DNA of 64,000 nucleotides. Origin: Candidatus Magasanikiibacteriota bacterium. Its GTDB lineage: Bacteria; Patescibacteriota; Patescibacteriia; Magasanikbacterales; GWA2-37-8. Numbering within the stretch: position 1 is the stretch's first letter; each line of letters begins with the position of its first letter. Below, one piece after another: positions 1-51,676 of the stretch. The stretch spans positions 76,782 through 140,781 of the forward strand of contig JBAYGI010000003.1 in NCBI GenBank assembly GCA_041666745.1, given 5' to 3'. A model generated the notes under the pieces. The model did no database searches and had not been told where the DNA came from. It saw only the letters and a program-made list of their open reading frames with translations. Position numbers and translations under genes: made by a program.

Positions 1-623
1 GAAATATGACCAAAACTACCTGTTTTTTTACCTCTATAGTCCGAACCAAGTGCGTCACAGTTGTCTTCTATAAGCCACAGGCCTTTTTCTTGACAAAATT
101 CAGCAATTTTATCTACTTCATAGGGATTACCAAGTGTGTGTGCAATAATCACCGCTCTTGTTTTATCAGAAAATGCTTTTTTAATTGAATCTAAACTCGG
201 ATTATAGTAACCAAGCTCAACATCAACGAATACTGGAACTAAACCATTGGTAATTATAGGATTAATAGTAGTTGGAAAACCAGCAGCAACAGTTATAACC
301 TCGTCACCTGGTTTTAATCTTTTATTTTCCGGTAATTTTTTTGAGGTTAAAGCCGTAATAGCTATTAAATTAGCAGAAGAACCAGAATTCACCAAAGAAC
401 AACTTTTAACCCCAATAAATGAAGCGATTTTTTGCTCTAACTGTTGAGAATATGTTCCTTCTGTCCACCAACCCTCCAAAACCGCTTCAGTGGCCATCAA
501 TATTTCATTCTCATCAAAAATTTTACCGGAAACTGGAACAATTGATTCTCCTGGAATGAATGTTTTTCCAGGGAAATTATTTTTATATTCATTTATTAAT
601 AGCGTTTTAAGATCTTGATTCAT
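1..623 (-). CDS. rfbH: CDP-6-deoxy-D-xylo-4-hexulose-3-dehydrase (E1; RfbH/DdhC-like DegT-family PLP enzyme), N-terminal ~207 aa only; the C-terminus lies beyond the window start
   Basis: Manual minus-strand translation from the ATG at 623-621 gives MNQDLKTLLINEYKNNFPGKTFIPGESIVPVSGKIFDENEILMATEAVLEGWWTEGTYSQQ...SGSSANLIAITALTS...KPGDEVITVAAGFPTTINPI...VPVFVDVELGYYN...IIAHTLGNPY...LWLIEDNCDALGS. It is collinear with the E1 dehydrase and open to position 1. It is absent from the ORF track because it runs off the edge. The start overlaps the stop of the 607-1866 ORF by 17 nt. Confidence 0.7.
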   Translation of the reverse strand, partial: MNQDLKTLLINEYKNNFPGKTFIPGESIVPVSGKIFDENEILMATEAVLEGWWTEGTYSQQLEQKIASFIGVKSCSLVNSGSSANLIAITALTSKKLPENKRLKPGDEVITVAAGFPTTINPIITNGLVPVFVDVELGYYNPSLDSIKKAFSDKTRAVIIAHTLGNPYEVDKIAEFCQEKGLWLIEDNCDALGSDYRGKKTGSFGHI

Positions 624-1866
624 AGGTTTTTTTAGAATATTCTTTAAAAATTATAATTAAAAATATCAAGATATAAATTGGTCTAAATACGAATAATAAC
701 GAGCCAGGCATTGTTTGAAACCATGTCACTAACAACGGTTCTGAAAAAATTAGAAATATCAAAATATCTAAAAAAAACTGTTTTTTTAAACTAAAAATCT
801 TACGTTCTCTCAACCACCACCAGATTAACAACAAAAATAACAAGTGGACACCGTTGTATATCAGGGAAACACTCGGTATCAATATCATCAAGCTGGTAAA
901 AAACGCAAACTCAGCCAATACAAAAAATTCATCAGTTGAAGTTTTGTTTATTTTTATCCGACGATACAATGCGAGGAAGAAAAAAGCAACACTAAATAAT
1001 ATTAATATTGAATAAACTGATCGACTGGTAGAAAACGACATTATTGAACGAGTTAAGCGATTATAAAATATGCCCATTAGGCCGTTATTAAATATGGAAG
1101 AAGTTGCCCAACTACCTGAAAATAATGTTAAATTATCGACGAATTTCAATAAACGATCAACTCCTAACAATACTGATCCAAATATTAAAGTAAATAAGGA
1201 TGCAAAAAATGCTTTTTTATTTTTAAGAAATAAATATGGAATAAAAATCACTGGCGTCAGTTTAAGTAACGCAGCGATACCAATAAAAAATCCAGCCGAT
1301 TTTGAACTATTTTTAGTTAAAAAATAGAAAGACAAAGCAAGACAAAACAACACCAATATATCAGTTTGACCGTGCGCTAAATGCATCCAAATAATTGGGG
1401 ACAATAAGAACAACGTTCCAATAACCAAACGAGTTAAAACCTTATTGACTGCAAAATTAGTAACTAGAAAAATAGATACTCCAAACATTATCAAAATTAA
1501 ATATGAATACCAGGTAAATGCTGTATGCAGAGAAAAAAAAGACAATGGAACAAAAATAAAAGCCAACAATGGAGGGTAAATAAAGCGCGAAATACCGCGT
1601 TCGTGTTCGCCAGGTAAAAATTCATTATCATTTTTAACAACATAAAATTCACCTACAGTGCGCAATCTATATCCAGCAAAATAAAATGTAGTAAAATCTC
1701 TTCCACCACCTGCCAAACCTTCCCCATAAATATGATGAAAATTTAGTGGTGAAATATTAAACGCTGCAACTTCCACTACTAAAATTGCTAAGCCTAGCAA
1801 GTAAAGAATCCAAATATAAAAAGAACGATAGTTTAATATATTGGCCATTAATTTTTTAAGAAACAT
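607..1866 (-). CDS. Polytopic integral membrane protein, GT-C-fold glycosyltransferase-like (DUF2029/GT87-like)
   Basis: 419-aa ORF with more than 10 hydrophobic helices. Motifs HGQTDILVLFCLALSFYF...GIAALLKLTPVIFIPY are typical of GT-C/DUF2029 membrane glycosyltransferases. It sits in the glycan operon. Confidence 0.45.
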   Translation of the reverse strand: MFLKKLMANILNYRSFYIWILYLLGLAILVVEVAAFNISPLNFHHIYGEGLAGGGRDFTTFYFAGYRLRTVGEFYVVKNDNEFLPGEHERGISRFIYPPLLAFIFVPLSFFSLHTAFTWYSYLILIMFGVSIFLVTNFAVNKVLTRLVIGTLFLLSPIIWMHLAHGQTDILVLFCLALSFYFLTKNSSKSAGFFIGIAALLKLTPVIFIPYLFLKNKKAFFASLFTLIFGSVLLGVDRLLKFVDNLTLFSGSWATSSIFNNGLMGIFYNRLTRSIMSFSTSRSVYSILILFSVAFFFLALYRRIKINKTSTDEFFVLAEFAFFTSLMILIPSVSLIYNGVHLLFLLLIWWWLRERKIFSLKKQFFLDILIFLIFSEPLLVTWFQTMPGSLLFVFRPIYILIFLIIIFKEYSKKTYESRS

Positions 1867-1898
1867 ACTGAATTTTTATTAATTTATTCAACATATTA

Positions 1899-2846: not shown

Positions 2847-2858
2847 AAATTATTAACA

Positions 2859-3746
2859 TTATTCAAATAAAATATCCTCTTTTTTAATAGTATTAATTTG
2901 TTTGGAGTAAAATAAAAATAATTTACTAATCGCCTCGTCAATTTTGGTAAATTTTAAATCAGGTATTTCTTTCCTTAAACGAGTAATATCACAGGAATAT
3001 TCTTTATTAAAACCGTCTTTTTTTATTTTTATTTCTAAATTTTTCCCCGACTGTTGTTTTATCTTTTTGGCAACATCTGACAACAAAACCCTCTGGCCGG
3101 TGCCGACATTATATGTTTTTTCTTTTCCTTGGTGGATGATAAAATAATCAACAATTTTAACAAAATCATCCACAAAAATATAATCAAAATATACATCCTG
3201 ATTAATTGAAATTGGTAAATTTAATAAAGCACGACAAATATTGTTGGAAATAAATCGAATACAACAATCTTCATATTTTCCAAATATTCCAAAAATTCTC
3301 AAATGAGTAATAAAATCTACTCGTTGCGCATATTGGGCACAAATATATTTATATAAACCATACCTATCAGTCGGAACTTTTTTGTCAAAATCAACTTCTT
3401 GAACATGAGAGATGTCATCTTGTTTACCATATTCAGCGCCAGAACCAAATGTTATCATTCTACCAAAATATCTATGACAGCGAGCAATATTAAAAAACAT
3501 GCTCAAATTCATCGATAGAACATCATCCGAATCTTTTTGTAGTCGGGTGCCACCCAAATTTGCTCCATGAATAACAAGATCAGGGCGACAGTTTTTTATA
3601 TAATTCTGCACTGCCGTGGAATCGCACAGATTTAATTCCGTACTACGCGGAGTAATAAAATTATATTTGTCACCAAGCAAATTTAATATGTTTTTGCCAA
3701 TAAACCCCCCACTTCCGGTGAGTAAAATTTTTATTTTATTTTTCAT
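2859..3746 (-). CDS. NDP-sugar 3,5-epimerase/4-reductase (GDP-L-fucose-synthase-like SDR)
   Basis: N-terminal Rossmann motif LLTGSGGFIGKNI. The pattern ...PRSTELNLCDSTAVQNYIKNCRPDLVIHGANLGG... matches Fcl/GER-type epimerase-reductases. Length 295 aa. Confidence 0.6.
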   Translation of the reverse strand: MKNKIKILLTGSGGFIGKNILNLLGDKYNFITPRSTELNLCDSTAVQNYIKNCRPDLVIHGANLGGTRLQKDSDDVLSMNLSMFFNIARCHRYFGRMITFGSGAEYGKQDDISHVQEVDFDKKVPTDRYGLYKYICAQYAQRVDFITHLRIFGIFGKYEDCCIRFISNNICRALLNLPISINQDVYFDYIFVDDFVKIVDYFIIHQGKEKTYNVGTGQRVLLSDVAKKIKQQSGKNLEIKIKKDGFNKEYSCDITRLRKEIPDLKFTKIDEAISKLFLFYSKQINTIKKEDILFE

Positions 3747-4381
3747 ACCAAAATATCTAATATTTCTTGAGGATTATCAACAACATACTCCGGCTCAGCA
3801 GCATTCAACTTAATTTTATCATGAAACCCCCAAGTAACTGCCAACATTTTCACACCAACACACTTACCATCAATAATATCACCCACGGTATCAGTAATAA
3901 AATAGCAATCAGAAGGTTGGAGTTTTAAACTTTCAACCAAAGACTCAACAACACCAGCCTTACCGTTTTTGTTAATTCCTAAAATTTCAAAGAATGATGA
4001 ACGTAAGCCATTCATTTCTAATATTTTTTCAATTTGAATTTTGGGAGCACTCGAAACTATAGCCATATGATCATAACCCGCTAATTGTATTTTTTTTACC
4101 ATTTCCTCCGCAAAATCATATAACTTGGTTCGCGAATAGTAATTATCGAAAACAGAATATTTTAGCACTTTGAATTCTTCTAATTTTCTCGGCTCTAAAG
4201 CCAAGAGCTTTTCCAAATTACCATGAAAATTTGAATTCAAAAAAAGGTTAGAATATTCTACCGCTGATATTTCCCGATCAAAGTGTGAACAGACAAAAAC
4301 ATGCATTTTATGTAACTCGTCAAAAGAGTTGTTTAACACCCCATCAAAATCAAATATTATAATCTTTTTTCTACTAATCAT
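3743..4381 (-). CDS. HAD-superfamily hydrolase (phosphatase, HAD-IA-like)
   Basis: N-terminal IIIFDFDGVLNNS (DxDG motif I). 212 aa. 4-nt overlap with the downstream gene. Confidence 0.6.
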   Translation of the reverse strand: MISRKKIIIFDFDGVLNNSFDELHKMHVFVCSHFDREISAVEYSNLFLNSNFHGNLEKLLALEPRKLEEFKVLKYSVFDNYYSRTKLYDFAEEMVKKIQLAGYDHMAIVSSAPKIQIEKILEMNGLRSSFFEILGINKNGKAGVVESLVESLKLQPSDCYFITDTVGDIIDGKCVGVKMLAVTWGFHDKIKLNAAEPEYVVDNPQEILDILV

Positions 4382-4382
4382 A

Positions 4383-4949
4383 CTAAAATCTTTTTATAAT
4401 AGCTTTCATAAAAGCTCCAACATCACGCGGATGGCGACAGGTAATAATATTGTCATCTTCCACAACCGGCTGATTCTCATAAATTGCACCACAATTTTTC
4501 AAATCATCCATTATACCTACATAACAAGTAGCGTGCTTATTTTTTAAAATTCCAGCAGAAATCAATACCCATGGGCCATGGCAAAAAGCTGCAATGATTT
4601 TTTTTGATTCATACATTTTGCGCACAAAATCCAAAACTTCCGGTATCTGTCGAACACGATCGGGAGCTTCAAAACCACCTGGTATTAAAACAAGATCGTA
4701 ATTGTCTAGATTTAACTTGGTAGAATCGATTAACTGTCCATAATATCGAATTAACAGTTCTAGAGGAAAATTCAAACGACCATTTACCATTTTTTTATCT
4801 TTTGTAGCGATGTCTATTTTAAACCCTTCTTCATGCAAACGAATAACGGGATAGATTACCTCCTCATCTTCAAAACCTTCAGCTGTAATTATCACGGCTC
4901 TTTTTGTCAGGTTGCTCATATTATTAAAATTCCTAATTAATTTAAACAT
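4383..4949 (-). CDS. DJ-1/PfpI-family protein (class I glutamine-amidotransferase-like / intracellular protease fold)
   Basis: RAVIITAEGFEDEE...LVLIPGGFEAPD...IIAAFCHGPWVLISAGIL, with the conserved nucleophile-elbow Cys in CHGP. Confidence 0.7.
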   Translation of the reverse strand: MFKLIRNFNNMSNLTKRAVIITAEGFEDEEVIYPVIRLHEEGFKIDIATKDKKMVNGRLNFPLELLIRYYGQLIDSTKLNLDNYDLVLIPGGFEAPDRVRQIPEVLDFVRKMYESKKIIAAFCHGPWVLISAGILKNKHATCYVGIMDDLKNCGAIYENQPVVEDDNIITCRHPRDVGAFMKAIIKRF

Positions 4950-6732
4950 TATTCATATTTTTTGAATATTCATCCCTTTTCAAAAACGGAAACATATCTT
5001 CCAAGGGTTTACTATCCATAGTACCATCAGAATTTTTCATGGAATATACTTTTGGAATCAGAGGCTGGAAAGCAGACATATTGATTTCGCAAACAACCGG
5101 CCCCTTACTTTTTAATACTTTATCTATTTTTTTTTCGATACCCTTATGATCTTTTATTCGAGAATATTGAATACCAAAAGCAGCAACTACTTTTCTAAAG
5201 TCTGGGAAACTCACCCCCGAAGAAGGATCGCTCGCTTCTAGGTCGCCGCCAAAAAATGAATTCTGGGTATTTCTGATAGCCAAATAACCTTGGTTGTTTA
5301 ACAAAAATACTTTTATTGGGAGATTGTGATGTTTGATAGTCTGTAGCTCCTGAATATTCATCATGATACTACCGTCACCGGTAATGAGGATGACTCTTTT
5401 TTTGTCATTTGCAAAACAAGCTCCAATCGCAGCTGGCAAATCATAACCCATGGCAGCACAACCAACATTGCTAATCAACCTTTGATTTTTCTTTATTTTA
5501 AAACACTGTAAAGTGGCGGTGAATGATGTACCAACACCAGTCAAAATTATTTCACCTTTTTTCAACAAAGAGGCTAAAACTTCGGTGAAATAATATGAAT
5601 TTACAAAATTCTTTTCATCTTTATACTCTGGTAAAACTACTGGATATTTTTCTTTCCACGCAATACAACGACTAACCCAATCGCTTGAATCTTTCCACTC
5701 ACCATCACTGGTCATGTTTAGTACCTCATTTAAAAAAACCTTGGCATCAATATTAATTGGCAAATCGGGATGAATGGTTTTTTTCGATAATTCCAACTTA
5801 TCAATATCAATAACTATTTTTTTGGATTTTTTGGCAAATTCGTTATAGTTATATCCAATATTCCAAAGATGATGCCGAACTCCAACACTAATTAATAAAT
5901 CACAATTTTGTACGGCAAAATTTCCGGCACGATCGCCAAATACACCTGGCCGCCCAACGCACAAACCATGTTCGCTTGGTATTAAATCATGCGCTGACAT
6001 AGAAGTAACTACCGGAATCTGTAATTTTTCAATAACCTTCATTAAAACATCTTCACCCTTTGCCAACCTAATACCATGACCGATAAATAACAAGGGGCGT
6101 TTTGCTGAATTAATCATTTTTTTAAAATCAGAAATTTTTGGAGACAAACTATTATCAACAAACTTTTCCTCCATGTCCGGTTTAAAACCTAATAATTCGT
6201 CTGTATTTACTATAGCCGATTGAACATCTGACGGTACATCAATGAGTACTGGCCCCGGTCGGCCAGATTTTGCCAAATAAACAGCTTTTTCTAGGTGATA
6301 TCTTATATCTTTTTGATCTAATACAACTACAGCATATTTGGAAATAGTTTTTACCAAATTAGGAGCATCTACCTCTTGAACCCCTAATTGCCTCAAACCA
6401 CTACCCCCGATCATATTGTCCCTTTTGACTTGTCCCGAGATATATAAAACTGGGATAGAATCAAGCCATGCGCCGGCAATACCGGTGATGGTGTTAGTTA
6501 ATCCTGGTCCAACAGTAGCCATACAAACCCCAATATTTTGATTTATTCGAGAATAACTTTCAGCGGCCATAGCTGACGCTTGTTCATGGTGATTGCAAAC
6601 ATATTTTAATTTATTATTTTTGGCTATCGAATCAATCATTTGCACGTTGCAACCACCAGAAATCAAAAAGACGTGCTTTACACCAAGTGTTGAAATAAAT
6701 TTTGCTATATAATCGGATACTTTAATTTTCAT
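4942..6732 (-). CDS. Thiamine-diphosphate-dependent enzyme, acetolactate-synthase large-subunit-like (YerE-like candidate branched-chain-sugar synthase), paralog 1
   Basis: 596 aa. The N-terminus reads SDYIAKFISTLGVKHVFLISGG...CNHHEQASAMAAESYSRI...GVCMATVGPGLTNTITGIAGAWLDSIPVLYISGQ, the ThDP pyrimidine-binding domain. The C-terminal ThDP-binding region reads GDGSIMMNIQELQT. Confidence 0.75.
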   Translation of the reverse strand: MKIKVSDYIAKFISTLGVKHVFLISGGCNVQMIDSIAKNNKLKYVCNHHEQASAMAAESYSRINQNIGVCMATVGPGLTNTITGIAGAWLDSIPVLYISGQVKRDNMIGGSGLRQLGVQEVDAPNLVKTISKYAVVVLDQKDIRYHLEKAVYLAKSGRPGPVLIDVPSDVQSAIVNTDELLGFKPDMEEKFVDNSLSPKISDFKKMINSAKRPLLFIGHGIRLAKGEDVLMKVIEKLQIPVVTSMSAHDLIPSEHGLCVGRPGVFGDRAGNFAVQNCDLLISVGVRHHLWNIGYNYNEFAKKSKKIVIDIDKLELSKKTIHPDLPINIDAKVFLNEVLNMTSDGEWKDSSDWVSRCIAWKEKYPVVLPEYKDEKNFVNSYYFTEVLASLLKKGEIILTGVGTSFTATLQCFKIKKNQRLISNVGCAAMGYDLPAAIGACFANDKKRVILITGDGSIMMNIQELQTIKHHNLPIKVFLLNNQGYLAIRNTQNSFFGGDLEASDPSSGVSFPDFRKVVAAFGIQYSRIKDHKGIEKKIDKVLKSKGPVVCEINMSAFQPLIPKVYSMKNSDGTMDSKPLEDMFPFLKRDEYSKNMNNV

Positions 6733-6735
6733 AGA

Positions 6736-7476
6736 TTATCGAATTAGTAGAAATCGAATTGAATTTTGGGACAAACAATCTTGTTCCAACTTACTACCAA
6801 CATGCAGTACTTCACCTAATAAAGAATAATTATTATCATCGTGCGCAATCGGACAAATTATATCACTCGGATGCAAAATAGTACAGGCGAGATCGGTGGT
6901 ACTTATCAAAGACATGATTCTATTTTTAAAACTTTTTTCGATATCAGTTTTGGCAAAGGCGTGATACTCAAAACCACTAAGATCTCTAGTTGTTTCTGAA
7001 ACACCCTCATAACCTTTATTTTCTCTCCCATAAGCATCCCTCAGACGTATAAGATCACCTTTGTTGGGTGGATTTTCTATTTCAATCACATATGCACCAC
7101 CATTGGATATGGCCAAGGTAGAATGAAAAACTCCATTATCTATCATAATAGCCTCTTTTTCTGACAACAAAAATGTGTCGGTGAGGGACGAAGTTTCAAT
7201 TTTCCCATGCAGATTTATCAATGATGTTTTCTTGTTGGGGTGACAATGCATAGAAGTCTTCATACCATTTTTTATATACAAAAACCAAATTGCCACATGT
7301 TTATTTTCAAAAAGCAAATATTCGTAACCCCATGGTTTGCGCACTACCAGCCCATTATAATCGGGATTATCAGAGAATATCGGTACAGACTTTTGCAAGG
7401 ATAGATTAGCCAAGTCAAATTGTGAACGAAAGATTTTGTTAATCATACAAGCCAAGGAGCGCAATTTTTGTCGCAA
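6736..7476 (-). CDS. Cupin-domain protein (sugar isomerase/epimerase-like bicupin)
   Basis: VVRKPWGYEYLLFENKHVAIWFLYIKNG...MHCHPNKKTS matches the cupin motifs seen in mannose-6-P-isomerase-type proteins. 34-nt overlap with the upstream rfbF paralog. Confidence 0.45.
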   Translation of the reverse strand: MRQKLRSLACMINKIFRSQFDLANLSLQKSVPIFSDNPDYNGLVVRKPWGYEYLLFENKHVAIWFLYIKNGMKTSMHCHPNKKTSLINLHGKIETSSLTDTFLLSEKEAIMIDNGVFHSTLAISNGGAYVIEIENPPNKGDLIRLRDAYGRENKGYEGVSETTRDLSGFEYHAFAKTDIEKSFKNRIMSLISTTDLACTILHPSDIICPIAHDDNNYSLLGEVLHVGSKLEQDCLSQNSIRFLLIR

Positions 7477-8231: not shown

Positions 8232-8237
8232 ATATAT

Positions 8238-10037: not shown

Positions 10038-10040
10038 ATA

Positions 10041-10790: not shown

Positions 10791-10801
10791 AAAAATATGT
10801 T

Positions 10802-11812: not shown

Positions 11813-11814
11813 AT

Positions 11815-12708: not shown

Positions 12709-13774
12709 ATAAGAAAGAATTAATTTGATTATTTGTCAAATCATTCATATTTTTTGAACCGCTATAAAATTGACGATACCAATCAAACGTTAACTCTAAA
12801 CAATTTTTTAAATTTAACTGTGGTTTCCAACCCAATTCATTCGTCGCTTTTTTAATATCTAACTTGAGAATATTAGCTTCATGTTTGGCGTTGTCAGGAA
12901 CTATTTTGTATTTTCCTCGTTTCAAAATTGAAATACCGGAACGAACCAAATCTTCGACACATACAAAACCCTCTTCATACGGACCAAAATTCCAAGCGCC
13001 AGATAAGTTTTTTTTACCATTATACAAATGTTCTGCCAATAATAAATAGCCTCGAAGTGGTTCTAAAACATGTTGCCACGGTCTGATTGATTTTGGGTTT
13101 CTAATAATAACATCTTCCTGACGCTCAAAAATTGCTCGCATCATATCCGGAATCAAACGGTCTTTTGCCCAATCCCCACCTCCAATTACATTGCCAGCCC
13201 GAGCAATACCAACCAAAGTATGGTGTTTGGTACCAAAGTCAGGTGGACTAAAGAAAGAACGGATATATGAGTAGGAAACAATATCAGCGGCAGCTTTGCT
13301 GGCACTATATGGATCATACCCACCTAAAGAATCAGTTTCGCTATATGGTTCTGGTCGTTCTTTATTTTCATAAACCTTATCAGTAGTAATAATAACAGCT
13401 GATTTAACACCACCAACTTCTTTGATAGCCTGCAAAACATTGGCGGTACCGATGATATTGATATTGTAGGTAGTCAATGGATCATCATAGCTGTCGCGAA
13501 CAAGTGGTTGGGCAGCCAAATGAAATACTATTTCTGGTTTTGTTTTACTTACTATTTCTTTTAATTTTTTATAATCACAAATATCAACAAAATAGTTATT
13601 TTTTATTTGGTTGGACAATTCCAAAGTATCAAATAAATTGGGAATAGTATTGGGAGGAAGCGAAATGCCAGTAACTTCAGCACCCCAATTACATAAAATT
13701 TTAGTCAACCAAGCGCCTTTAAAACCAGAGTGACCAGTAATCAAAACTTTTTTGTGGTTATAAAAATTTATCAT
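12698..13774 (-). CDS. rfbG: CDP-glucose 4,6-dehydratase
   Basis: KKVLITGHSGFKGAWLTKILCNWGAEVTGISL...IVFHLAAQPLVRDSY...SYSASKAAADIVSY is the extended-SDR dehydratase pattern typical of RfbG/DdhB. 358 aa. Confidence 0.8.
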   Translation of the reverse strand: MINFYNHKKVLITGHSGFKGAWLTKILCNWGAEVTGISLPPNTIPNLFDTLELSNQIKNNYFVDICDYKKLKEIVSKTKPEIVFHLAAQPLVRDSYDDPLTTYNINIIGTANVLQAIKEVGGVKSAVIITTDKVYENKERPEPYSETDSLGGYDPYSASKAAADIVSYSYIRSFFSPPDFGTKHHTLVGIARAGNVIGGGDWAKDRLIPDMMRAIFERQEDVIIRNPKSIRPWQHVLEPLRGYLLLAEHLYNGKKNLSGAWNFGPYEEGFVCVEDLVRSGISILKRGKYKIVPDNAKHEANILKLDIKKATNELGWKPQLNLKNCLELTFDWYRQFYSGSKNMNDLTNNQINSFLFEK

Positions 13775-13779
13775 AATGA

Positions 13780-14460
13780 TTATCTTTTTTTCTGAATATA
13801 GTAGATGTTGCTACCATCGTACAAAACCTTTTTATATCCATACTTTGACAAAAATTGGTCATAGTTCTTTCCCTCAATACACAAGACCGAAGCACCGTAT
13901 TTAGACCAATTGTTGCCACTTAAAATTTCATTTTCAAATCCTTCCACATCCATGTTAATAAAATCTATATGGGTCAAATTATTGTCACTAAAAATCTTAC
14001 TCAGAGTTGAAACTTTAATTTTTTTAGATTGTAGATCATATTTTCTTTCATTGTATACTTTTTTAGAAAATGTGAAACCAGTACTGTCGATGAGAGTGGC
14101 GTTTGGTTTGTAATAATAATCCAACTCACCTTCTTGGCCAGCTAATCCAATATTTAAATTTATATCACGTGGTCTATCTTTTAAAAATAATAGATAATTA
14201 TCAGAATTGGGTTCTATGTTTATACCGCTCCACCCTCTTTCATAAAACTTCTTCGTTACACTTATCTTGTGTGGATTGTTGGCTCCAATATCAATATAAG
14301 ATCCAGTATCTTTAAAACCGGTAAGAATATCAATTATTTGATCTTCCTTATTTTGGGCATAAGTAATCTTATCTTTAGAGAATAAACTCACAAATAAAAA
14401 AGCAATACGGTGATAAAATTGATATAAAATCTTGTTTAAAATATTTTTAAAGTATTTCAT
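13780..14460 (-). CDS. FkbM-family SAM-dependent methyltransferase (sugar O-methyltransferase candidate)
   Basis: YIDIGANNPHKISVTKKFYERGWSGINIEPNSDNY matches the FkbM domain signature. The start is taken at the internal ATG 14460 (MKYFKNIL), 2 nt after the rfbF stop. The longer 14499 start would overlap rfbF by 37 nt. Confidence 0.65.
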   Translation of the reverse strand: MKYFKNILNKILYQFYHRIAFLFVSLFSKDKITYAQNKEDQIIDILTGFKDTGSYIDIGANNPHKISVTKKFYERGWSGINIEPNSDNYLLFLKDRPRDINLNIGLAGQEGELDYYYKPNATLIDSTGFTFSKKVYNERKYDLQSKKIKVSTLSKIFSDNNLTHIDFINMDVEGFENEILSGNNWSKYGASVLCIEGKNYDQFLSKYGYKKVLYDGSNIYYIQKKR

Positions 14461-14462
14461 AA

Positions 14463-15248
14463 TTATTTCCAAATTTTCCAAAAAGGATCTTTGTTCCACA
14501 TTTCATTTAAATCATCTGCCTCTTTTGCTGTATCCATACATTTCCAATTTCCTGAATGTTTGTATACTGATAGTTGTAATTGTTGAGACAAAGGAGAGAA
14601 AACAGATTCAATCATACTGTTTGGCGTGATTAAATCCAGTACTTGTTTTTCGAACACCATAAAACCACCATTGATATAATCTTTTGGGCGACAATCTTCA
14701 TTGTCAGTAATTTTATGTTGAAAAAAATCTACTACTTTACTGGACTCATGATGAATATTTAACATACCAAAACGAGTTGAAGGATGGATACCGGTAATAG
14801 TACCAACAGTTCCCTGTCGATTATGAAATTCCACCAACTCTTTAATGTTAATATCACTCACACCATCACCATAGGTAACCATAAAAGGCCCGTCATCTAA
14901 ATATTTTGCCGCCTGTAAAACACGTTCACCTGTCAACGAAGCTTGTCCAGTTTCTGCAAAAGTAATTTTAAAATCATCACATTCATTATTATGAAAGGTT
15001 ACTTCGTTGGTTTTAGTTGATAAAGTAAAATCATTTAATAATCCACGCCAATTCAAAAAATATTCTTTAATCATATTGCCTTTGTATCCGAGCGCTAAAA
15101 CAAATTCATTATAACCATAATGAGAATAAATTTTCATTATATGCCATAGCATTGGTTTACCGCCAATTTCCACCAAAGGCTTCGGTTTGAATTCTGTTTC
15201 CTCTTTCATGCGGGTGCCGGTGCCACCGCAAAGTATTATAGTTTTCAT
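14463..15248 (-). CDS. rfbF: Glucose-1-phosphate cytidylyltransferase
   Basis: MKTIILCGGTGTRMKEETEFKPKPLVEIGGKPMLWHIMKIYSHYGYNEFVLALGYKGNMIKEYF is near-collinear with RfbF/DdhA. 261 aa. Confidence 0.85.
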   Translation of the reverse strand: MKTIILCGGTGTRMKEETEFKPKPLVEIGGKPMLWHIMKIYSHYGYNEFVLALGYKGNMIKEYFLNWRGLLNDFTLSTKTNEVTFHNNECDDFKITFAETGQASLTGERVLQAAKYLDDGPFMVTYGDGVSDINIKELVEFHNRQGTVGTITGIHPSTRFGMLNIHHESSKVVDFFQHKITDNEDCRPKDYINGGFMVFEKQVLDLITPNSMIESVFSPLSQQLQLSVYKHSGNWKCMDTAKEADDLNEMWNKDPFWKIWK

Positions 15249-15285
15249 ATTTTTATGATTATTAATTTTCTAATTTAAATTATTA

Positions 15286-16284
15286 TTAAGCGCTTGCATT
15301 AATATTTTTTCGAGAATCCCTAATTAACTTAATAAAACTGTTTGGTACAAAAAATATTATCACTGCCAACAATAAATAGAAGGGCGAACAATAGAATTCA
15401 TCAATCATCATCTTTAAATCATTCATTTTACAATTGAGGCCGTTGGCCTTGGCTCTTAGTAGCATGAGGATTAATTTTTTTGGAAATGAAGACAATATTT
15501 GATTAACATAATTTATATTATAACCAAAACTCGGTAGTTTTTTAAGTATTCTATTCCAATTGATAAAATAATAAAACTCTGTACCACCCTTAATCCAATC
15601 ACACGATTGCATAGTGGAAACTAACGAAGCGCCATTGTGTTCGAACGGTAAATTGGATTGAGCGATCATTTTTAGTGCAATTTCATAGTATGACCAACCT
15701 ACAAAATATCCTGTTCTATCTACATCTAGCCACATTTGTCTATTAAAAATCATAGACGACAACAAACCAATACAATAATTTTTTGCAAAAAATTCATTGT
15801 GTGCTTTTGGCGCGAAATGTTCGACATTTTCCAGATAATTTCTCTTTTTGTATACAGTCGCCATATCAACAAACTTCTCAGTTTGTACAGTATATAGGGC
15901 GAGAATATTATTTTTCAAATATTTAACTAGATAATCCAAAGCACCGTTAAGGATAAAATCATCGTCGCCAATAATCCAAGCGTACTTGCCGTTTGAATTA
16001 ACAACAGACTCTATATAATTTGCGTCACAACCAAGATTTTCTTTATTTATAAAATATGTAATATTGGAATATTGTTTGATAAACTTTTCAACAACTAATC
16101 TAGTATTATCTGTACTAGCATTATCAGAAACGACAATTTCTATTTCCGATAATAAATCTGGGTTTTTACCAATCTGCGCAAAAATAGTACTCAAACACTG
16201 GTCGAGATTGTTGGCACGGCAATAGGTAGGTATACAGATACTTAATGTTGGTTGATTTGACATAATTTCTTTTACAGTTTTCAT
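15286..16284 (-). CDS. GT2-family glycosyltransferase
   Basis: LSICIPTYCRANNLDQC...EIVVSDNASTDNT...AWIIGDDD motifs. Confidence 0.7.
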   Translation of the reverse strand: MKTVKEIMSNQPTLSICIPTYCRANNLDQCLSTIFAQIGKNPDLLSEIEIVVSDNASTDNTRLVVEKFIKQYSNITYFINKENLGCDANYIESVVNSNGKYAWIIGDDDFILNGALDYLVKYLKNNILALYTVQTEKFVDMATVYKKRNYLENVEHFAPKAHNEFFAKNYCIGLLSSMIFNRQMWLDVDRTGYFVGWSYYEIALKMIAQSNLPFEHNGASLVSTMQSCDWIKGGTEFYYFINWNRILKKLPSFGYNINYVNQILSSFPKKLILMLLRAKANGLNCKMNDLKMMIDEFYCSPFYLLLAVIIFFVPNSFIKLIRDSRKNINASA

Positions 16285-16287
16285 TAA

Positions 16288-17211
16288 CTAACGCCTCAGA
16301 GCCGACTTAATGGTTTTAATAATATTTTCAACTGATAGACCGGCTTGGGAACGCATAAACTCTTGTGACCCAACAACCGAATAATAAAGATCAGGAACTC
16401 CCAAACGTTTAAAACGACCCTTAAAACCCAATTCACATAGCTCTGCACCGACCGTGGTTCCAAATCCACCAATTATATTCCCCTCTTCTAGGGTTATTAT
16501 AAAGTTACTTTGATTAGCTAATTTAAGCAACCGTCCTCTATCAAGAGGTTTGATGGTATTGAAATAAATTAGTCCAATATCAATACCTTCATTAATTAAT
16601 TGTTGAACAGCGATATAAGCACTATTAACAATCGTGCCAATACACAATAACATTACATCATTGCCAGATTTTATAATTGAGCTAACGCCCAACTTAGCAG
16701 GTTCCTCATGTAGCCATGATAACGATGGATCACCACCTTTACTAAGACGAAGATAACACGGTCCAGCTGAGGACACGATCTGCGAAATGAGCTGAGCGGA
16801 TTGAATGGCGTCGGCAGGTACAACTATTCTCATGTTCGGCAATGATTGCATAACTGCTATATCTTCGATAGCATGATGAGTTACTCCAGCAGAACCATAA
16901 GTATACCCAGCACCAACACCAATTATAGTAACATCTAAATTTTGATAACAAACGTCAACTTTAATCTGTTCTAAACATCGCAAGGTTACAAACGGCACAA
17001 TAGAATAAACAAAAACTTTTTTTCCAGACAAGGCTAGCCCTGCCGCCAAGCCTATCATATTTTGTTCAGCAATACCAACATTGATAAACTGTTTGGGAAG
17101 TTCTCTTTGAAAATTTTCTACTACAGAGTAACCTAAATCTCCAATTAGTAAAATAATATTGGGATTCTTTTTAGCCTCCTCAAATATGTTGTTTATGACA
17201 GTGTTTCTCAT
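16288..17211 (-). CDS. Transketolase, C-terminal (pyrimidine-binding plus C-terminal domain) subunit of a split transketolase
   Basis: GDLGYSVVENFQRELPKQFINVGIAEQNMIGLAAGLALSGKKVFVYS. 307 aa. Confidence 0.8.
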   Translation of the reverse strand: MRNTVINNIFEEAKKNPNIILLIGDLGYSVVENFQRELPKQFINVGIAEQNMIGLAAGLALSGKKVFVYSIVPFVTLRCLEQIKVDVCYQNLDVTIIGVGAGYTYGSAGVTHHAIEDIAVMQSLPNMRIVVPADAIQSAQLISQIVSSAGPCYLRLSKGGDPSLSWLHEEPAKLGVSSIIKSGNDVMLLCIGTIVNSAYIAVQQLINEGIDIGLIYFNTIKPLDRGRLLKLANQSNFIITLEEGNIIGGFGTTVGAELCELGFKGRFKRLGVPDLYYSVVGSQEFMRSQAGLSVENIIKTIKSALRR

Positions 17212-18026
17212 ATGCTATCCAATTCTCTAATGGCCATATCCAATTCCAATTGATTAGGGCTCTTATAATGCCATTCTACTTTATTCTCCATAAAGGAGAC
17301 CCCTTTACCCTTAATGGTGTTCGCCAACAAGAGTTTTGGATTTTTGTTTTTTGAACTATTTAAAATCGCAAATGATCTTTCTATTTCTTCAAAATTATGA
17401 CCAGAGACTTCAACTACCTCCCACCCAAAAGCCTGCCAACGTTCCGCCATATTTTCAAAATTCATTATAGTACCTGAAAATCCCATTCCCTGTTGTTTGT
17501 TATAATCAACGATCGCTACTAAATTATTCAATTGATGGTGTTTGGCAAACATGGCCGCCTCCCATACCGAACCTTCGTTACATTCTCCATCTCCCATGAG
17601 ACAATAAAAACGTCGATTATTGTTGTCACCTGCCTTGGCCGCCCAAGCCATGCCAGCGGCCATTGATAAGACATGCCCCAATGAACCAGCTGTATTTTCG
17701 ACACCTGACAAGCAATTTATGGTTACATGATTGGCCAAAACTGTTCCATCTTTACCAAATGTATCTAAAATTTTTGAAGAAACAAAACCGAACTCTGCCA
17801 AAACAGCATACAAAGCAACAGCTGCGTGACCTTTACTAAGCATAAAAATATCGCGATTAGGATCTTGCGGTGCAGTTGCTTTGATATTTAAAATTCTACT
17901 ATATAGAACCACTAACAAATCCACAATACTAAAACAGGAGCCAATGTGCGAAGATTTGCTTCTACTCAGTATTTCTAAAATATTTTTCCTAATAATTTTC
18001 GACCTTTGATGTAAATCATTTTCCAT
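17208..18026 (-). CDS. Transketolase, N-terminal (ThDP-binding) subunit of a split transketolase
   Basis: HIGSCFSIVDLLVVLY...LSKGHAAVALYAVLAEFGF...GDGECNEGSVWEAAMFAKHHQLNNLVAIVDYNKQQ. 4-nt overlap with the C-terminal subunit gene. Confidence 0.8.
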   Translation of the reverse strand: MENDLHQRSKIIRKNILEILSRSKSSHIGSCFSIVDLLVVLYSRILNIKATAPQDPNRDIFMLSKGHAAVALYAVLAEFGFVSSKILDTFGKDGTVLANHVTINCLSGVENTAGSLGHVLSMAAGMAWAAKAGDNNNRRFYCLMGDGECNEGSVWEAAMFAKHHQLNNLVAIVDYNKQQGMGFSGTIMNFENMAERWQAFGWEVVEVSGHNFEEIERSFAILNSSKNKNPKLLLANTIKGKGVSFMENKVEWHYKSPNQLELDMAIRELDSI

Positions 18027-18027
18027 A

Positions 18028-19104
18028 TTAGCTCAAAAAACTTTCAATGGTTCTTTTAAATCCTGTTTTAATATCGAACACCGGTTCCCATCCTAACTGT
18101 TTTATTTTTTCAATCGATGGGCAAGAAATATTAAATTCACTGGCAAGATAATAATCATTCTGTTCCCTGATCTTCACAACAACCTTTAGTTTTTTTTCTG
18201 GATACAACCCAACTATCAAATTAGCTAAGTCTCTAATTGATAAAGCGGCGCGTGGATTGCCTAAATTATAGACTTCGCCTGCCTGTCCCTTTAATAATAC
18301 TGACAAAGCACCCACAACAAAATCAGCCACATAACAAAAAGCCCTAACATTTTTACCGTCACTTTTTAACACTAAATCACGGTTGTCAATTACATCAGAA
18401 ACAAAATCGGCGAAAACGCGCCCATCATCTAACGCAAAACCGGGGCCATAAGTATGAAACGGCCTAATAATATTGACAGGAAGGGCATATTGTTGAAACC
18501 ACGATAAACACAAAGTTTCTCCGGCGCGTTTACCTTCAGCATAACACGAACGAATCTTGGCTGGGTCAATTTTACCCACATCGTTTTCTTTAATCAAACT
18601 TCCACCATCGCCCATTGTTCCATATATTTCCGAGGAGCTAAAAAAAAGAAAATTTTTAATTTTTTTTAAAGCACCCTCTGCTAGTAAATTATATGTACCA
18701 AGCACATTTGGCAAAAAAGTTCCAACCGGATCAGTATAATAATATTTTGGGCTGGCCTGACTAGCGGCATGAATCACATAATCAATATTATCATCGGGTA
18801 AAGATAGTGGTACACAAACATCTTGTACAATTATTTTAAGATCCTCCCTATCCTTATAATGTGCAAACCGCTTAAGTGCTTTATCCTTATTTCTGACCAA
18901 TGCAATAACTTTTAATTTTGAAAATAATTTTTTTTCATTCAAATATAATAGCGCCCCCACTATGTATGACGGTAAAAAACCATTTGCGCCGGAAATTAAT
19001 ATCGTACTACCTGCCAGTTTGTCCCATGGCAAATTAGCATCCGTAATAAATTTTAGGTCTTCCTCAATAATAATATTTCTCATAATTACTAAGAATTCAT
19101 ACAA
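18028..19104 (-). CDS. NAD-dependent epimerase/dehydratase-family SDR (NDP-sugar modifying)
   Basis: ILISGANGFLPSYIVGALLYL Rossmann motif, downstream YAEGKRAGE (YxxxK). 358 aa. Confidence 0.7.
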   Translation of the reverse strand: MYEFLVIMRNIIIEEDLKFITDANLPWDKLAGSTILISGANGFLPSYIVGALLYLNEKKLFSKLKVIALVRNKDKALKRFAHYKDREDLKIIVQDVCVPLSLPDDNIDYVIHAASQASPKYYYTDPVGTFLPNVLGTYNLLAEGALKKIKNFLFFSSSEIYGTMGDGGSLIKENDVGKIDPAKIRSCYAEGKRAGETLCLSWFQQYALPVNIIRPFHTYGPGFALDDGRVFADFVSDVIDNRDLVLKSDGKNVRAFCYVADFVVGALSVLLKGQAGEVYNLGNPRAALSIRDLANLIVGLYPEKKLKVVVKIREQNDYYLASEFNISCPSIEKIKQLGWEPVFDIKTGFKRTIESFLS

Positions 19105-19139
19105 TACTGCGAACAGCTATTCGAAAAAAAATAATATTT

Positions 19140-20600
19140 TCATATTTCACTTTGATTAAAATAAGTGTTTAATTTAATTCTAATTGGATTAAAGAAAAAT
19201 ATTAAATCATCCCTGACTATAATACGTAAACGGAACAATAACCAAATATTTATCAAACATAATAATATTCCGAAATAATAATTATTCAGCTGACCGCCGT
19301 ATTTTAATCCAAAAAGTATTAACATATTAATAAAACTCACACACAAAATCTTAGCAAGAAATATTTTATCTTTTTCCCACACAGAAAAATGTTGTAATAA
19401 CAACAAATTAAATACTTCAGCGATCACAGTGGCCCAAGCCGCGCCATACAATGAATATCTTGGAATTAATATTAAATTAAGAATAATATTCAATATCAGA
19501 CCAAAACTAACAATAAACAGACTAAAATATTCTCGACGCTGAATAATTAATAAATTATTAAAAAGCAAACTAATAGTAGCCACTATTTGAACTAATATTA
19601 AAATACGCAGGGCCAAAACGCTGGGCATAAATGAAGCAGGAAAAAATATACTAATTATAGGAGGCGCGAAAAAAATAAAAAATAATGTTATTATCAAACT
19701 ATAAGAAAACATAATGCGCATCGCTCTGTAAAAAAAATCAGTGAATTGCTGACGCTTACTGACATCGTTCCACATAGAAGACAGGGCAGGAAAAATAGAT
19801 GGCATAAATAAAATTGCAGTAAACAAACCGGCAACTTCTAAAAATTTGTAGGCAGTACCATACCAACCAACCGCTTCAAAATTCCCCAAATACCGCAACA
19901 TCACAATATCAACCCTGGCATACAAGCTAGCAAAAAGAGTAATGAACAAAAATGGCAACCCTTTCTTAATCATGGCAAATATTTTTTTGCCATCAAAAAT
20001 TAATCTAAACTTAAATGGTAATGCAACTTTGAAATAATAAAATAAAGAAAATATTTGGCTAAGTAAAATAGCAAAAAACACCGTTTCTACTCGTGGCCAA
20101 AAAAATAATCCAACTGATCCGAGAATGATTATTACCACTTTCTCAAACACCTGTCTAATTGATGGGTATTTAAACAGACTAGCTGACTGGAAAAAAGCAT
20201 CCGCAAGATTGATATATGTTGCGAGAAAAGTTGAAACAAAAAAAGTAATCAAAGCCAATAATATCCTAAAATTGGAAAAATAATTAACAAAAAAGAATGG
20301 CACAAACAAAATCAAAACCGTAATAAGACGCAGAGTAAAAATCAAGAAAAAATCATCTTCAATCTGATTGAATGTCTTGGGACTCTTCGACCATTCTCTA
20401 TACAAATGCCCACTAGCGCCAAAATCCAAAAAAATAAACCACATTATCACGAATGAAGAGATAAAATTGTATTGACCCATGCCAACATCACCCAAAAGAT
20501 GCGACATTAAAACAAAAAAAACGAGACCTAGAATTCGCAAAAAAAACTGTGAAAATAGTGACCATGCAAAATTTTTCCCGGCTTGTAATTCATTGTCCAT
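19140..20600 (-). CDS. Polysaccharide biosynthesis / oligosaccharide flippase (Wzx-like, MOP superfamily)
   Basis: 486 aa with about 12-14 TM helices. N-terminal FAWSLFSQFFLRILGLVFFVLMSHLLG is typical of Wzx flippases. First gene of the glycan operon. Confidence 0.65.
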   Translation of the reverse strand: MDNELQAGKNFAWSLFSQFFLRILGLVFFVLMSHLLGDVGMGQYNFISSFVIMWFIFLDFGASGHLYREWSKSPKTFNQIEDDFFLIFTLRLITVLILFVPFFFVNYFSNFRILLALITFFVSTFLATYINLADAFFQSASLFKYPSIRQVFEKVVIIILGSVGLFFWPRVETVFFAILLSQIFSLFYYFKVALPFKFRLIFDGKKIFAMIKKGLPFLFITLFASLYARVDIVMLRYLGNFEAVGWYGTAYKFLEVAGLFTAILFMPSIFPALSSMWNDVSKRQQFTDFFYRAMRIMFSYSLIITLFFIFFAPPIISIFFPASFMPSVLALRILILVQIVATISLLFNNLLIIQRREYFSLFIVSFGLILNIILNLILIPRYSLYGAAWATVIAEVFNLLLLQHFSVWEKDKIFLAKILCVSFINMLILFGLKYGGQLNNYYFGILLCLINIWLLFRLRIIVRDDLIFFFNPIRIKLNTYFNQSEI

Positions 20601-20616: not shown

Positions 20617-20862
20617 TTACCAATCTTTGGTCTTCTCTATTGTTTTCATTTTTATCTTCTGATAAACATCGGTGGCTTTTTCATCAACAACCGGAGACAA
20701 CATTCTGAGTAACTCATGCCCCAGAATCCTGTACTGTTTACCAATTTTATTGGCTCTCAACAGGCCACTCTTGAATAAACGTTTCATGGTGCTGTTGCTT
20801 ATTTTCAACAATTGTTCGACCTCAGCGGTTGTATAAACTTCATTGGGGTTGATTTCGACCAT
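20617..20862 (-). CDS. Small helix-turn-helix DNA-binding protein, excisionase/AlpA-like (HTH_17-type)
   Basis: 81 aa. VYTTAEVEQLLKISNSTMKRLFKSGLLRANKIGKQYRILGHELLRML. Confidence 0.5.
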   Translation of the reverse strand: MVEINPNEVYTTAEVEQLLKISNSTMKRLFKSGLLRANKIGKQYRILGHELLRMLSPVVDEKATDVYQKIKMKTIEKTKDW

Positions 20863-20921
20863 ATTTTATAGCATAAGATTTCAGTCTTAATTATACTCTT
20901 AGGTGTCATTGGGTGTCAATA

Positions 20922-28434: not shown

Positions 28435-28439
28435 ATAAC

Positions 28440-51671: not shown

Positions 51672-51676
51672 AAAGT

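Follow-up and report, generated by a model that had tools for sequence, protein, structure and literature searches.

What could a bacterium of the Candidate Phyla Radiation (CPR) be building with a long operon of glycan genes? The question is raised by a 64-kb stretch of the genome of a Candidatus Magasanikiibacteriota bacterium (contig JBAYGI010000003.1), which we call the window and whose first 20.6 kb hold 21 consecutive minus-strand open reading frames (ORFs), from position 20600 down to position 1, with no substantial plus-strand gene among them. An initial annotation, made from the sequence alone, had the gene count and strand right and had proposed a branched CDP-dideoxy sugar made through YerE-type enzymes. 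This core idea is right in kind. Our reading, to which we give a probability of roughly 0.68, is that the window carries a surface-glycan operon that makes CDP-4-keto-3,6-dideoxy-D-glucose and diversifies it, by means of enzymes dependent on thiamine diphosphate (ThDP), to sugars with acyl branches at C-4. Clusters for acyl-branched sugars are a published class, with more than 200 reportedly predicted, and the locus falls within it; what sets it apart is the CPR host and the combination of two YerE-like modules with a transketolase cassette. Attachment of CPR bacteria to host cells is believed to involve their surfaces, and from the operon one would predict that a CPR bacterium devotes more than 25 genes to rare C-branched deoxy sugars of higher carbon number. 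To our knowledge, such sugars have so far come from a handful of Proteobacteria, mycobacteria and one spirochaete.

Gene families were assigned by Pfam and NCBIfam profile searches, using the NCBIfam equivalog cutoffs, and selected proteins were compared with sequences from the PDB. By exact protein matches the window lies on a metagenomic contig of 144,881 bp (ENA ERZ27249449), and a leftward extension taken from it (here L001) covers 9.4 kb past position 1; two proteins of the operon are listed at NCBI under a Candidatus Magasanikbacteria metagenome-assembled genome. Homologous loci are numbered from L002 onwards. All window features given below with coordinates lie on the minus strand. Every family named in the initial annotation was recovered (Wzx, two RfbF copies, RfbG, RfbH, two ThDP enzymes, FkbM, PfpI, HAD, two short-chain dehydrogenases/reductases (SDRs), two GT2 glycosyltransferases and a GT-C enzyme). 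Functions had been named for 16 of the 21 genes, whereas DmpF, DmpG, an HpcH aldolase and a split transketolase encoded by two genes had been overlooked. We distinguish module A (DmpF, DmpG, HpcH and the first ThDP enzyme, ThDP1), module B (a second NTP-transferase, a cupin, the second ThDP enzyme, ThDP2, a DJ-1/PfpI protein, a HAD protein and a 295-aa SDR, SDR295) and module C (a 358-aa SDR, SDR358, with the split transketolase).

The evidence for the keto-sugar core centres on RfbH (DdhC, or E1, the CDP-4-keto-6-deoxyglucose 3-dehydrase), whose first 207 codons lie in the window (1-623) before the gene runs off its end and which is complete in L001 (11244-12563). The full protein scores 663.6 bits against the RfbH equivalog model (cutoff 423) and 530 bits against the Yersinia E1 of PDB entry 3BCX. 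Its segment SFYPAHHMT aligns with SFYPAHHIT of wild-type E1, which contains His220; the corresponding segment of the H220K mutant (3BB8) is SFYPAKHIT. A C-X57-C-X1-C-X7-C [2Fe-2S] motif is also kept, and both the His-for-Lys change and the four iron-sulphur cysteines are found again in the RfbH orthologues of L002 and L004. By these features E1 and SpnQ are told apart from aminotransferases and from ColD (PMC8987622). The CDP-3,6-dideoxyhexose core put forward in the initial annotation is supported, with a genuine E1 dehydrase, and the active-site change on which that proposal had been made to depend is present in the full-length gene. The remaining core genes are those of the CDP-glucose 4,6-dehydratase RfbG/DdhB (12698-13774; TIGR02622, 462.4 bits over its full length, cutoff 278.45) and of two proteins related to glucose-1-phosphate cytidylyltransferase, for both of which TIGR02623 (cutoff 300.25) is by far the best-matching family. 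Copy 1, RfbF1 (RfbF/DdhA-like; 14463-15248), falls just under this cutoff with 276.5 bits and is 49-53% identical to the first cassette gene in L002 and L004. Copy 2, a cytidylyltransferase-type NTP-transferase and the first gene of module B (7443-8231), scores 236.4 bits and is 38% identical to copy 1.

Where would the electrons for this dehydrase come from? The E3 reductase (DdhD/AscD) had been expected just beyond position 1, and none lies in the 9.4 kb beyond it nor in the 64-kb window. The called genes of L001 include no Fer2, FAD_binding_6 or NAD_binding_1 label, and motif scans of the window and L001 found no ORF with a CX4CX2C or ferredoxin-NADP reductase (FNR) motif. One could therefore argue that no C-3 deoxygenation takes place, that the RfbH-like protein is a transaminase or idle, and that CDP-4-keto-6-deoxyglucose or an amino sugar is what becomes branched. 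Besides the lack of any E3, ferredoxin or FNR gene in the window and L001, this idea can draw on SpnQ, which shows aminotransferase activity when its reductase is absent (PMC8987622), and on some loci with module B (L088 and L090), which have no obvious E1. We regard it as unlikely, even if it is the strongest competitor. The conservation of the catalytic His and the four cysteines, here and in L002 and L004, argues for selection on redox dehydrase function; E1 itself, under SpnQ-like conditions, showed no transamination (PMC8987622); and a CDP-tyvelose 2-epimerase homologue encoded downstream implies 3,6-dideoxy products. Moreover, an E1 homologue (at least 44% identity) is present within 10 kb of the YerE-like gene in 53 of 87 homologous loci, and no [2Fe-2S]/FNR reductase gene lies within 10 kb in 52 of these 53 (among L002-L087), the sole exception being a PaaE-like FNR/Fer2 reductase in Pedobacter psychrophilus (L049, 5316-6353). 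The absence of E3 from the comparison loci rests on a relaxed Fer2 motif scan, which did detect the PaaE-like reductase of L049; a stricter combined scan (Fer2 + RxYS + GGxGxxP) found E3 in none of the loci. Because 52 of the 53 comparable E1-bearing loci also have no linked E3, the absence of this gene refutes nothing: an unlinked electron donor is the rule, and the textbook E1/E3 pair may be the exception. SpnQ can draw on general reductase pairs, those of ferredoxin or flavodoxin (PMC8987622).

The epimerase homologue is a 342-aa SDR that matches CDP-tyvelose 2-epimerases with 508 bits (9RL0) and 431 bits (1ORR). It is preceded in L001 by a 300-aa SDR and followed by a small DPM1-like GT2 (14546-17173), a trio whose order is also found in L088 and L091. 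The trio implies that an unbranched paratose- or tyvelose-type product, which the epimerase-like enzyme and the SDR would yield together, is made as well.

The second element of our reading is the pair of ThDP enzymes, ThDP1 (8238-10037) and ThDP2 (4942-6732), which share the operon with RfbG and RfbH. They are 47% identical, both have the N, M and C domains of the TPP_enzyme families in Pfam, and GDGS occurs in both translations. ThDP1 matches JanthE (PDB 8RPH), a characterised YerE-like enzyme that accepts pyruvate (PMC12188165), with 413 bits, compared with 252 bits for the best acetohydroxyacid synthase (AHAS); the corresponding values for ThDP2 are 465 and 290 bits. Against the AHAS model TIGR00118 the two proteins reach 389.5 and 394.8 bits, which is less than the required 538.35, and neither attains the cutoff of any other AHAS model. 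No ilv genes (ilvN, ilvC or other) occur in the window. By these comparisons ThDP1 and ThDP2 are YerE-like carboligases and not IlvB, as the initial annotation had held.

What would these enzymes add to the sugar? A two-carbon, yersiniose-like branch had been predicted; the YerE type of the enzymes stands, whereas the limit to two carbons ignores the DmpF, DmpG and HpcH genes beside ThDP1. DmpF, an acetylating acetaldehyde dehydrogenase of the DmpF/BphJ/ErwJ type (11815-12708), scores 368 bits against TIGR03215 (cutoff 282). DmpG, a 4-hydroxy-2-oxovalerate (pyruvate) aldolase of the DmpG/BphI/ErwI type (10802-11812), scores 360 bits against TIGR03217 (cutoff 286) and has HMGL-like and DmpG_comm (80 bits) domains. 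HpcH, an HpcH/HpaI class II pyruvate aldolase of the MMAR_2331 type (10041-10790), matches Pfam HpcH_HpaI with 82 bits, stays below all NCBIfam equivalog cutoffs and is 58% identical to the orthologue at the same position in L004. The translations contain what we take to be the catalytic motifs, VTCGGQA with the catalytic Cys in DmpF, RDGSH and HAHNN in DmpG, and DxEH, R, E and D in HpcH. The DmpF and DmpG genes lie 2 nt apart, DmpG is two genes upstream of ThDP1, and the gaps along the series DmpF, DmpG, HpcH, ThDP1 are 2-11 nt.

A published scheme accounts for such neighbours. For branches longer than C2, pyruvate and an aldehyde are joined by an aldolase to a 4-hydroxy-2-keto acid (Steitz et al. 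2022, PMC9306805); a YerE-like enzyme then decarboxylates this acid and adds the acyl unit to CDP-4-keto-3,6-dideoxyglucose, and a reductase finishes the side chain (PMC9306805). In the erwiniose cluster the YerE-like enzyme ErwE, which refuses pyruvate, has an aldolase similar to BphI and an acetaldehyde dehydrogenase similar to BphJ as its neighbours, and in the caryophyllose pathway the aldolase that goes with the YerE-like enzyme belongs to the HpcH/citrate-lyase family (PMC9306805). By analogy, DmpF and DmpG beside ThDP1 would reproduce the erwiniose logic, with 4-hydroxy-2-oxovalerate as the donor and a C4 branch as the result.

This arrangement is not confined to the window. A scan of one genome per species found relatives in at least 600 species, and 80 loci were kept, P. 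atrosepticum not being among them. In L002 and L004, two other metagenomic contigs, the order RfbF, dehydratase, DmpF, DmpG, (HpcH), ThDP, SDR of about 290 aa, GT2 and E1 recurs, at 40-58% protein identity. DmpFG adjoins the ThDP gene in an archaeal metagenome-assembled genome (MAG; L018), Duganella (L023), a Fibrobacteres MAG (L026), a Clostridia MAG (L037) and Pedobacter (L049), and DmpG alone is found in L025, a 4.2-kb contig. Altogether, DmpF, DmpG and HpcH co-occur with ThDP1 orthologues in nine other loci of different phyla. In a neighbour-joining tree of 91 sequences, calculated with no bootstraps, the DmpFG-linked and the cupin-linked ThDP enzymes fall into separate, context-pure groups, with ThDP1 among the former and ThDP2 among the latter. 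YerE-like enzymes are sought as catalysts for chiral tertiary alcohols, and these two clades point to differing donor scope.

The same evidence bears on the simpler idea that both ThDP enzymes are YerE proper, which would use pyruvate to add an acetyl (C2) branch of the yersiniose type, the aldolase and dehydrogenase genes having no part in donor supply. JanthE, the closest solved relative, accepts pyruvate, and module B has no aldolase, so that pyruvate or another common 2-keto acid would be a reasonable donor for ThDP2. For ThDP1, however, this idea has to set aside the three genes immediately upstream with their 2-11-nt gaps, their recurrence with ThDP1 orthologues in nine loci from different phyla, the separate groups that DmpFG-linked enzymes form in the tree and the rejection of pyruvate by ErwE, which has the same genomic context. 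We hold it to be improbable, slightly more so than the loss of C-3 deoxygenation.

A separate observation concerns L071, a Bacteroidetes MAG, where two YerE-like paralogues are present, neither with DmpFG or a cupin. Since this locus also has two such paralogues, dual branching enzymes are not unique to the window.

Module B is the part of the locus most worth follow-up. The second RfbF, the cupin, PfpI and HAD, all named in the initial annotation, are no incidental additions; they form a conserved module with ThDP2. The block NTP-transferase, cupin, ThDP enzyme, DJ-1/PfpI and HAD recurs in the CPR locus L006, in Cephaloticoccus (Verrucomicrobiota; L007) and in L088, L090 and L091. In all five loci NTP-transferase 2 directly precedes the cupin and the DJ-1/PfpI gene follows the ThDP gene; a closing Epimerase-family SDR comes after HAD in L006, L088, L090 and L091, though not in L007. 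A dehydratase-like SDR lies just upstream of the block in L088 and L090. Modules A and B are combined only in the window and its close relative L091. In the literature searched, no description of the module (NTP-transferase, cupin, ThDP enzyme, DJ-1, HAD and SDR) was found.

The cupin (6736-7446), a metal-site protein named in the initial annotation, has only a sub-threshold Pfam match (mannose-6-phosphate isomerase C-terminal domain, 21.1 bits, cutoff 23.6), and its fold is confirmed by an AlphaFold2 model (pLDDT 88.9) for which Foldseek retrieved from the PDB generic cupins only (oxalate decarboxylase, KdgF, the CapF cupin and phosphomannose isomerase). Residues H67, H69, H108, E122 and E124, with a His/His/His/Glu set among them, are invariant. 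About 302 homologues, mostly from CPR bacteria, occur among 5.8 billion proteins, and none of them bears an experimentally based name; they are called hypothetical or "mannose-6-phosphate isomerase-like (cupin superfamily)". Protein P0342, encoded on a short JGI contig, unites the cupin and the N-terminal domain of a YerE-like ThDP enzyme in a single ORF, and because this is a natural fusion we consider the two proteins to be functionally linked. The DJ-1/PfpI-family protein (4383-4919) scores 144.5 bits against TIGR01382 (cutoff 139). The HAD_2 protein (3743-4381), a putative phosphatase or mutase, is phosphoglycolate-phosphatase-like at 70 bits, below cutoff. SDR295 (2859-3746; Pfam Epimerase) is a candidate reductase of the YerF/ErwF type for the keto group of the branch or for C-4, and shares 40-45% identity with the SDR encoded immediately after the ThDP gene in L002 and L004. 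It had been called Fcl-like: the Epimerase family is correct, whereas the likeness to Fcl is weak, with 38 bits for GDP-fucose synthase and 35 bits for RmlD, its best PDB match.

A related gene set occurs in a Deltaproteobacteria MAG (GCA_030649435.1; L089, 4829-8815), where a cupin, PfpI, HAD and an Epimerase-family SDR stand together with no ThDP enzyme. Their neighbours there are two B12-binding radical S-adenosylmethionine (SAM) enzymes, a GHMP kinase, a SIS isomerase, a NUDIX protein and an MR_MLE enolase-type protein. It may be that the cupin, PfpI and HAD together serve different enzymes of C-C or C-methyl branching.

Module C consists of SDR358 (18028-19104), the N subunit of a split transketolase, TktN, which would bind ThDP (17208-18026; Transketolase_N, 124 bits; NCBIfam transketolase, 252 bits, below the full-length cutoff), and the C subunit, TktC, with the pyrimidine-binding and C-terminal domains (16288-17211; Pfam Transket_pyr and Transketolase_C). 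L091 has the same gene order as the window, with DNA identities of 82.5% over window positions 16271 to 1862 and 86.9% over 1860 to 1, and has nothing that corresponds to window positions 19133 to 16272, which are exactly SDR358, TktN and TktC. Because the three genes are missing together from this close relative, as a clean 2.86-kb indel, they form an accessory unit. SDR358 (Pfam Epimerase) is nearest in the PDB to 8V4G, a nucleotide-sugar dehydratase, and to UDP-glucuronate decarboxylase (UXS; 135-138 bits), and from these similarities it may be a UXS-like keto-sugar former or a side-chain ketoreductase. It may also be the reductase of module A: homologues (29-53% identity) adjoin DmpFG/ThDP in L023, L026, L037 and L049, which supports the assignment, and L091, where module A occurs without SDR358, weakens it.

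It has been proposed, though not proven, that split transketolases branch keto sugars with a hydroxyacetyl unit in the miharamycin and amipurimycin pathways, and 13 of 13 predicted cases are from Streptomycetes (PMC12247030). For eurekanate, EvdS6, a UXS-type SDR, has been proposed to work with a heterodimeric ThDP enzyme (PMC10338323). Our literature search for transketolases in polysaccharide loci returned nothing relevant. We also considered that the transketolase and a cupin isomerase might make a 4-deoxytetrose from acetaldehyde for a caryophyllose-type donor formed by HpcH, and rejected this idea because the gene contents of L091 and L007 do not fit it: in L091 HpcH and the cupin are present and the transketolase is missing, and in L007 the cupin is present and both HpcH and the transketolase are missing.

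The notion that all this is a metabolic mosaic, in which the ThDP enzymes are acetolactate synthases (as database annotations call their homologues), DmpFG is a meta-cleavage remnant and the transketolase is a housekeeping enzyme (as split transketolases can be, and no second one was seen in the window) that merely lie within a glycan locus, is very improbable, given that neither ThDP enzyme reaches any of the AHAS equivalog cutoffs and both are closer to a YerE-like structure, that no ilv genes and no meta-cleavage hydratase or hydrolase are nearby, that the synteny with genes for E1 and dehydratase persists across phyla, and that the transketolase pair comes and goes with an SDR as an accessory indel, unlike an essential housekeeping gene.

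Taking these elements together, the proposed pathway would run as follows. By family membership, RfbF1 would make CDP-glucose and RfbG would convert it to CDP-4-keto-6-deoxyglucose, from which RfbH, a dehydrase dependent on pyridoxamine 5'-phosphate and a [2Fe-2S] cluster, would remove the 3-hydroxyl with electrons presumably delivered by a general cellular reductase. DmpF would turn acetyl-CoA into acetaldehyde and DmpG would join acetaldehyde and pyruvate to 4-hydroxy-2-oxovalerate; ThDP1 would decarboxylate this acid and add a 3-hydroxybutanoyl unit to C-4 of the keto sugar, and an SDR would reduce the ketone of the side chain. We infer these module A steps because of the published pathway and the conserved synteny. 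HpcH would probably make a second, longer or different 4-hydroxy-2-keto-acid donor. Module B would constitute a second, separately inherited branching pathway, and module C, a mobile cassette of three genes, may add a C2 ketol (hydroxyacetyl) branch, which is speculative. FkbM enzymes would methylate the products, GtrB-like GT2s would load sugars on polyprenyl phosphate for transfer by GT87 GT-C enzymes outside the membrane, and Wzx and Wzy_C would handle a lipid-linked oligosaccharide.

Does the locus then hold three distinct ThDP-dependent branching systems around a single keto-sugar intermediate, module B standing for a new class of branched sugar and module C for branching by a transketolase? 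We put this forward tentatively, as a possibility on the doubtful side. Should it be true, module B would be a self-contained pathway with donor or acceptor chemistry outside the published aldolase-plus-YerE scheme, and with module C sugar branching of the transketolase type would for the first time be known from a cell-surface glycan outside the Streptomycetes.

Several points weigh against our reading of the operon as a source of C-4 acyl-branched 3,6-dideoxy sugars. The literature searched offered neither biochemical data nor glycan structures for this organism or any other CPR bacterium. Neither RfbF copy reaches the NCBIfam cutoff. With no E3, ferredoxin or FNR-type gene in 73 kb, C-3 deoxygenation needs a partner encoded elsewhere. 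The ErwE-like specificity that we ascribe to ThDP1 would follow from synteny and clade context and not from direct comparison with the Erw proteins, YerE or MMAR_2332, and the ThDP tree has no bootstrap support. HpcH looks redundant beside DmpG. In L088 and L090 there is no DegT protein of E1 length on the same strand, so that the sugar on which ThDP2 acts may not be a 3-deoxygenated one. Finally, the promoter and terminator calls given below are consensus matches only.

How does the locus compare with known systems? Its closest counterpart is the erwiniose cluster of Pectobacterium atrosepticum SCRI1043 (ErwE/F/J/I and ddh genes; PMC9306805), which likewise has an acetaldehyde dehydrogenase, a pyruvate aldolase, a YerE-like ThDP enzyme, SDRs and the genes for CDP-4-keto-3,6-dideoxyglucose side by side, a likeness of gene families and arrangement and not of directly compared Erw protein sequences. 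Unlike that cluster, the window adds the HpcH aldolase, a second YerE-like enzyme with its module and the split transketolase, has no linked E3, lies in a CPR host and apparently relies for delivery on a GtrB-like GT2 and a GT87 GT-C enzyme and not on Gram-negative lipopolysaccharide. With yersiniose A biosynthesis in Yersinia pseudotuberculosis (DdhA-D, YerE/YerF) it shares a close E1 with identical active-site features and the YerE-like subclass of ThDP enzymes, whereas YerE uses pyruvate and needs no aldolase, and Yersinia has a dedicated E3 (DdhD/AscD) that the window does not have. As in the caryophyllose genes of Mycobacterium marinum (MMAR_2331/2332/2333) and the C6-branched clusters of R. 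palustris, an aldolase of the HpcH/citrate-lyase family stands beside a YerE-like ThDP enzyme and glycosyltransferases, and the window has an additional SAM methyltransferase, as do the R. palustris clusters. In contrast to caryophyllose, the HpcH of the window co-occurs with DmpFG, and the source of a C4 aldehyde for a caryophyllose-type donor is not evident. Module C resembles the miharamycin/amipurimycin and eurekanate proposals in placing a two-gene ThDP enzyme beside an SDR related to UDP-glucuronate decarboxylase in a sugar pathway; those are Actinobacterial antibiotic pathways, whereas here the setting is a CPR surface-glycan operon and the role is read from the behaviour of the cassette, without sequence comparison. 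As to delivery, the succession of a PgfS/ArnC-like GT2 and a GT87 enzyme, together with the GtrA domain found in L091, recalls three-component extracytoplasmic glycosylation (GT2, flippase and GT-C), with the difference from established systems that the GT2 of the window scores below the PgfS and ArnC equivalog cutoffs.

That GT2 (GT2b; 1899-2846), a GtrB/ArnC/PgfS-like protein, reaches 195.8 bits against PgfS and 135 bits against ArnC, and its hydrophobic C-terminal stretch was read as membrane helices by eye from the translation. It is followed by the GT87-family GT-C membrane glycosyltransferase (607-1866; Pfam GT87, 82 bits, cutoff 25). GT87 GT-C enzymes use polyprenyl-phosphate-linked sugar donors. 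A second GT87, fused to FkbM, and the DPM1-like GT2 lie downstream of the window in L001. In most comparison loci the cassette is found together with GT2 genes, and in L002, L004 and L007 there are GT-C enzymes (YfhO, AftD or PMT_2) near it. This equipment points to single sugars being moved via polyprenyl phosphate to an extracytoplasmic acceptor, alongside the Wzx/Wzy_C route. The latter is represented by a Wzx-type flippase (19140-20600; Pfam PF01943 Polysacc_synt, 86.9 bits, with a weak NCBIfam Wzx_EPS match); no initiating phosphoglycosyltransferase was seen in the window. A GT2 of 332 aa (15286-16284; Pfam Glycos_transf_2, 77 bits) and an FkbM-family methyltransferase (13780-14499; Pfam Methyltransf_21, 69 bits) complete the set; the true start of the latter is probably near 14460, and its L091 orthologue is called at 226 aa.

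The GT87 protein of L091 was seen to carry an extra N-terminal GtrA domain (551 versus 419 aa; L091 14873-15241 versus window 1860-1866). Besides the transketolase cassette, this is the second indel between the two operons.

Where does the operon begin and end? The initial annotation had drawn it from wzx to rfbH with gaps of 0-5 nt. The genes are indeed tightly packed, with 13 of 21 junctions within -4 to +6 nt, although the spacing measured on maximal ORFs extends from -37 to +37 nt. Both boundaries need to be moved outwards. Sixteen nucleotides upstream of wzx lies the gene of an 81-aa HTH_17 DNA-binding protein (20617-20862; Pfam HTH_17, 42.5 bits), a candidate regulator, and the order HTH_17 then Wzx is also found in L006. 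Directly upstream of it is the promoter-like site TTGACA-18-TATAAT (20890-20919), which matches the sigma-70 consensus at 12 of 12 positions. The operon probably starts at this gene, one gene earlier than had been thought. We place the start there because the next gene upstream has its own promoter and is preceded by a strong terminator. This gene, described before as an O-antigen-ligase/TPR protein and found as such, encodes a membrane protein of the Wzy_C (O-antigen ligase/polymerase) family with a C-terminal tetratricopeptide repeat (TPR) region (20922-23012; Pfam Wzy_C, 65.6 bits, and weak TPR matches). A promoter-like site (23046-23074; 11 of 12 consensus positions) lies upstream of it, and a terminator with a 12-bp stem and 7 GC pairs (23088-23114), a pattern match, separates it from the 3' end of the gene for a 1239-aa protein. 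The Wzy_C/TPR gene thus seems to form a transcription unit of its own immediately upstream of the operon, in whose interior promoter and terminator scans gave background levels only. We also note that promoters at this locus apparently resemble the E. coli consensus in a CPR bacterium.

At the other end, co-directional genes continue past position 1 to the end of L001, at least 9.4 kb, with six complete after GT87 and a seventh truncated by the end of the stretch. They encode the full RfbH (439 aa), the GT87-FkbM fusion, the 300-aa and 342-aa SDRs, the small GT2 and two large domain-less proteins. The G+C content is 31-37% at 1-22 kb, compared with 38-43% in the rest of the window (24000-64000). 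Low G+C is common in variable surface-glycan loci.

The remainder of the window offers some further observations. The 1239-aa protein (23155-26874), encoded directly upstream of the Wzy_C/TPR gene, has an N-terminal hydrophobic segment, is rich in Thr, Ser, Ala and Val and matches no Pfam domain. Possibly it is a surface protein, for instance of an S-layer, and a candidate target of glycosylation, the latter because O-oligosaccharyltransferases of the PglL type belong to the Wzy_C family. Beside its gene lie those of an ECF-type sigma factor (Sigma70_r2/r4) and, next in order, of a DUF5667 protein (27109-28997), possibly a sigma/anti-sigma pair. Farther away there are a giant ORF of 3586 aa (51677-62437), with two bacterial TSP3-repeat proteins downstream (region 50420-62437), and, just upstream of it, a Big_5 Ig-like protein (62434-63960). 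The window also encodes SAM synthetase (31725-32876) and pyruvate kinase (43426-44865), which could supply SAM to the FkbM enzymes and pyruvate to the aldolases and ThDP enzymes, respectively.

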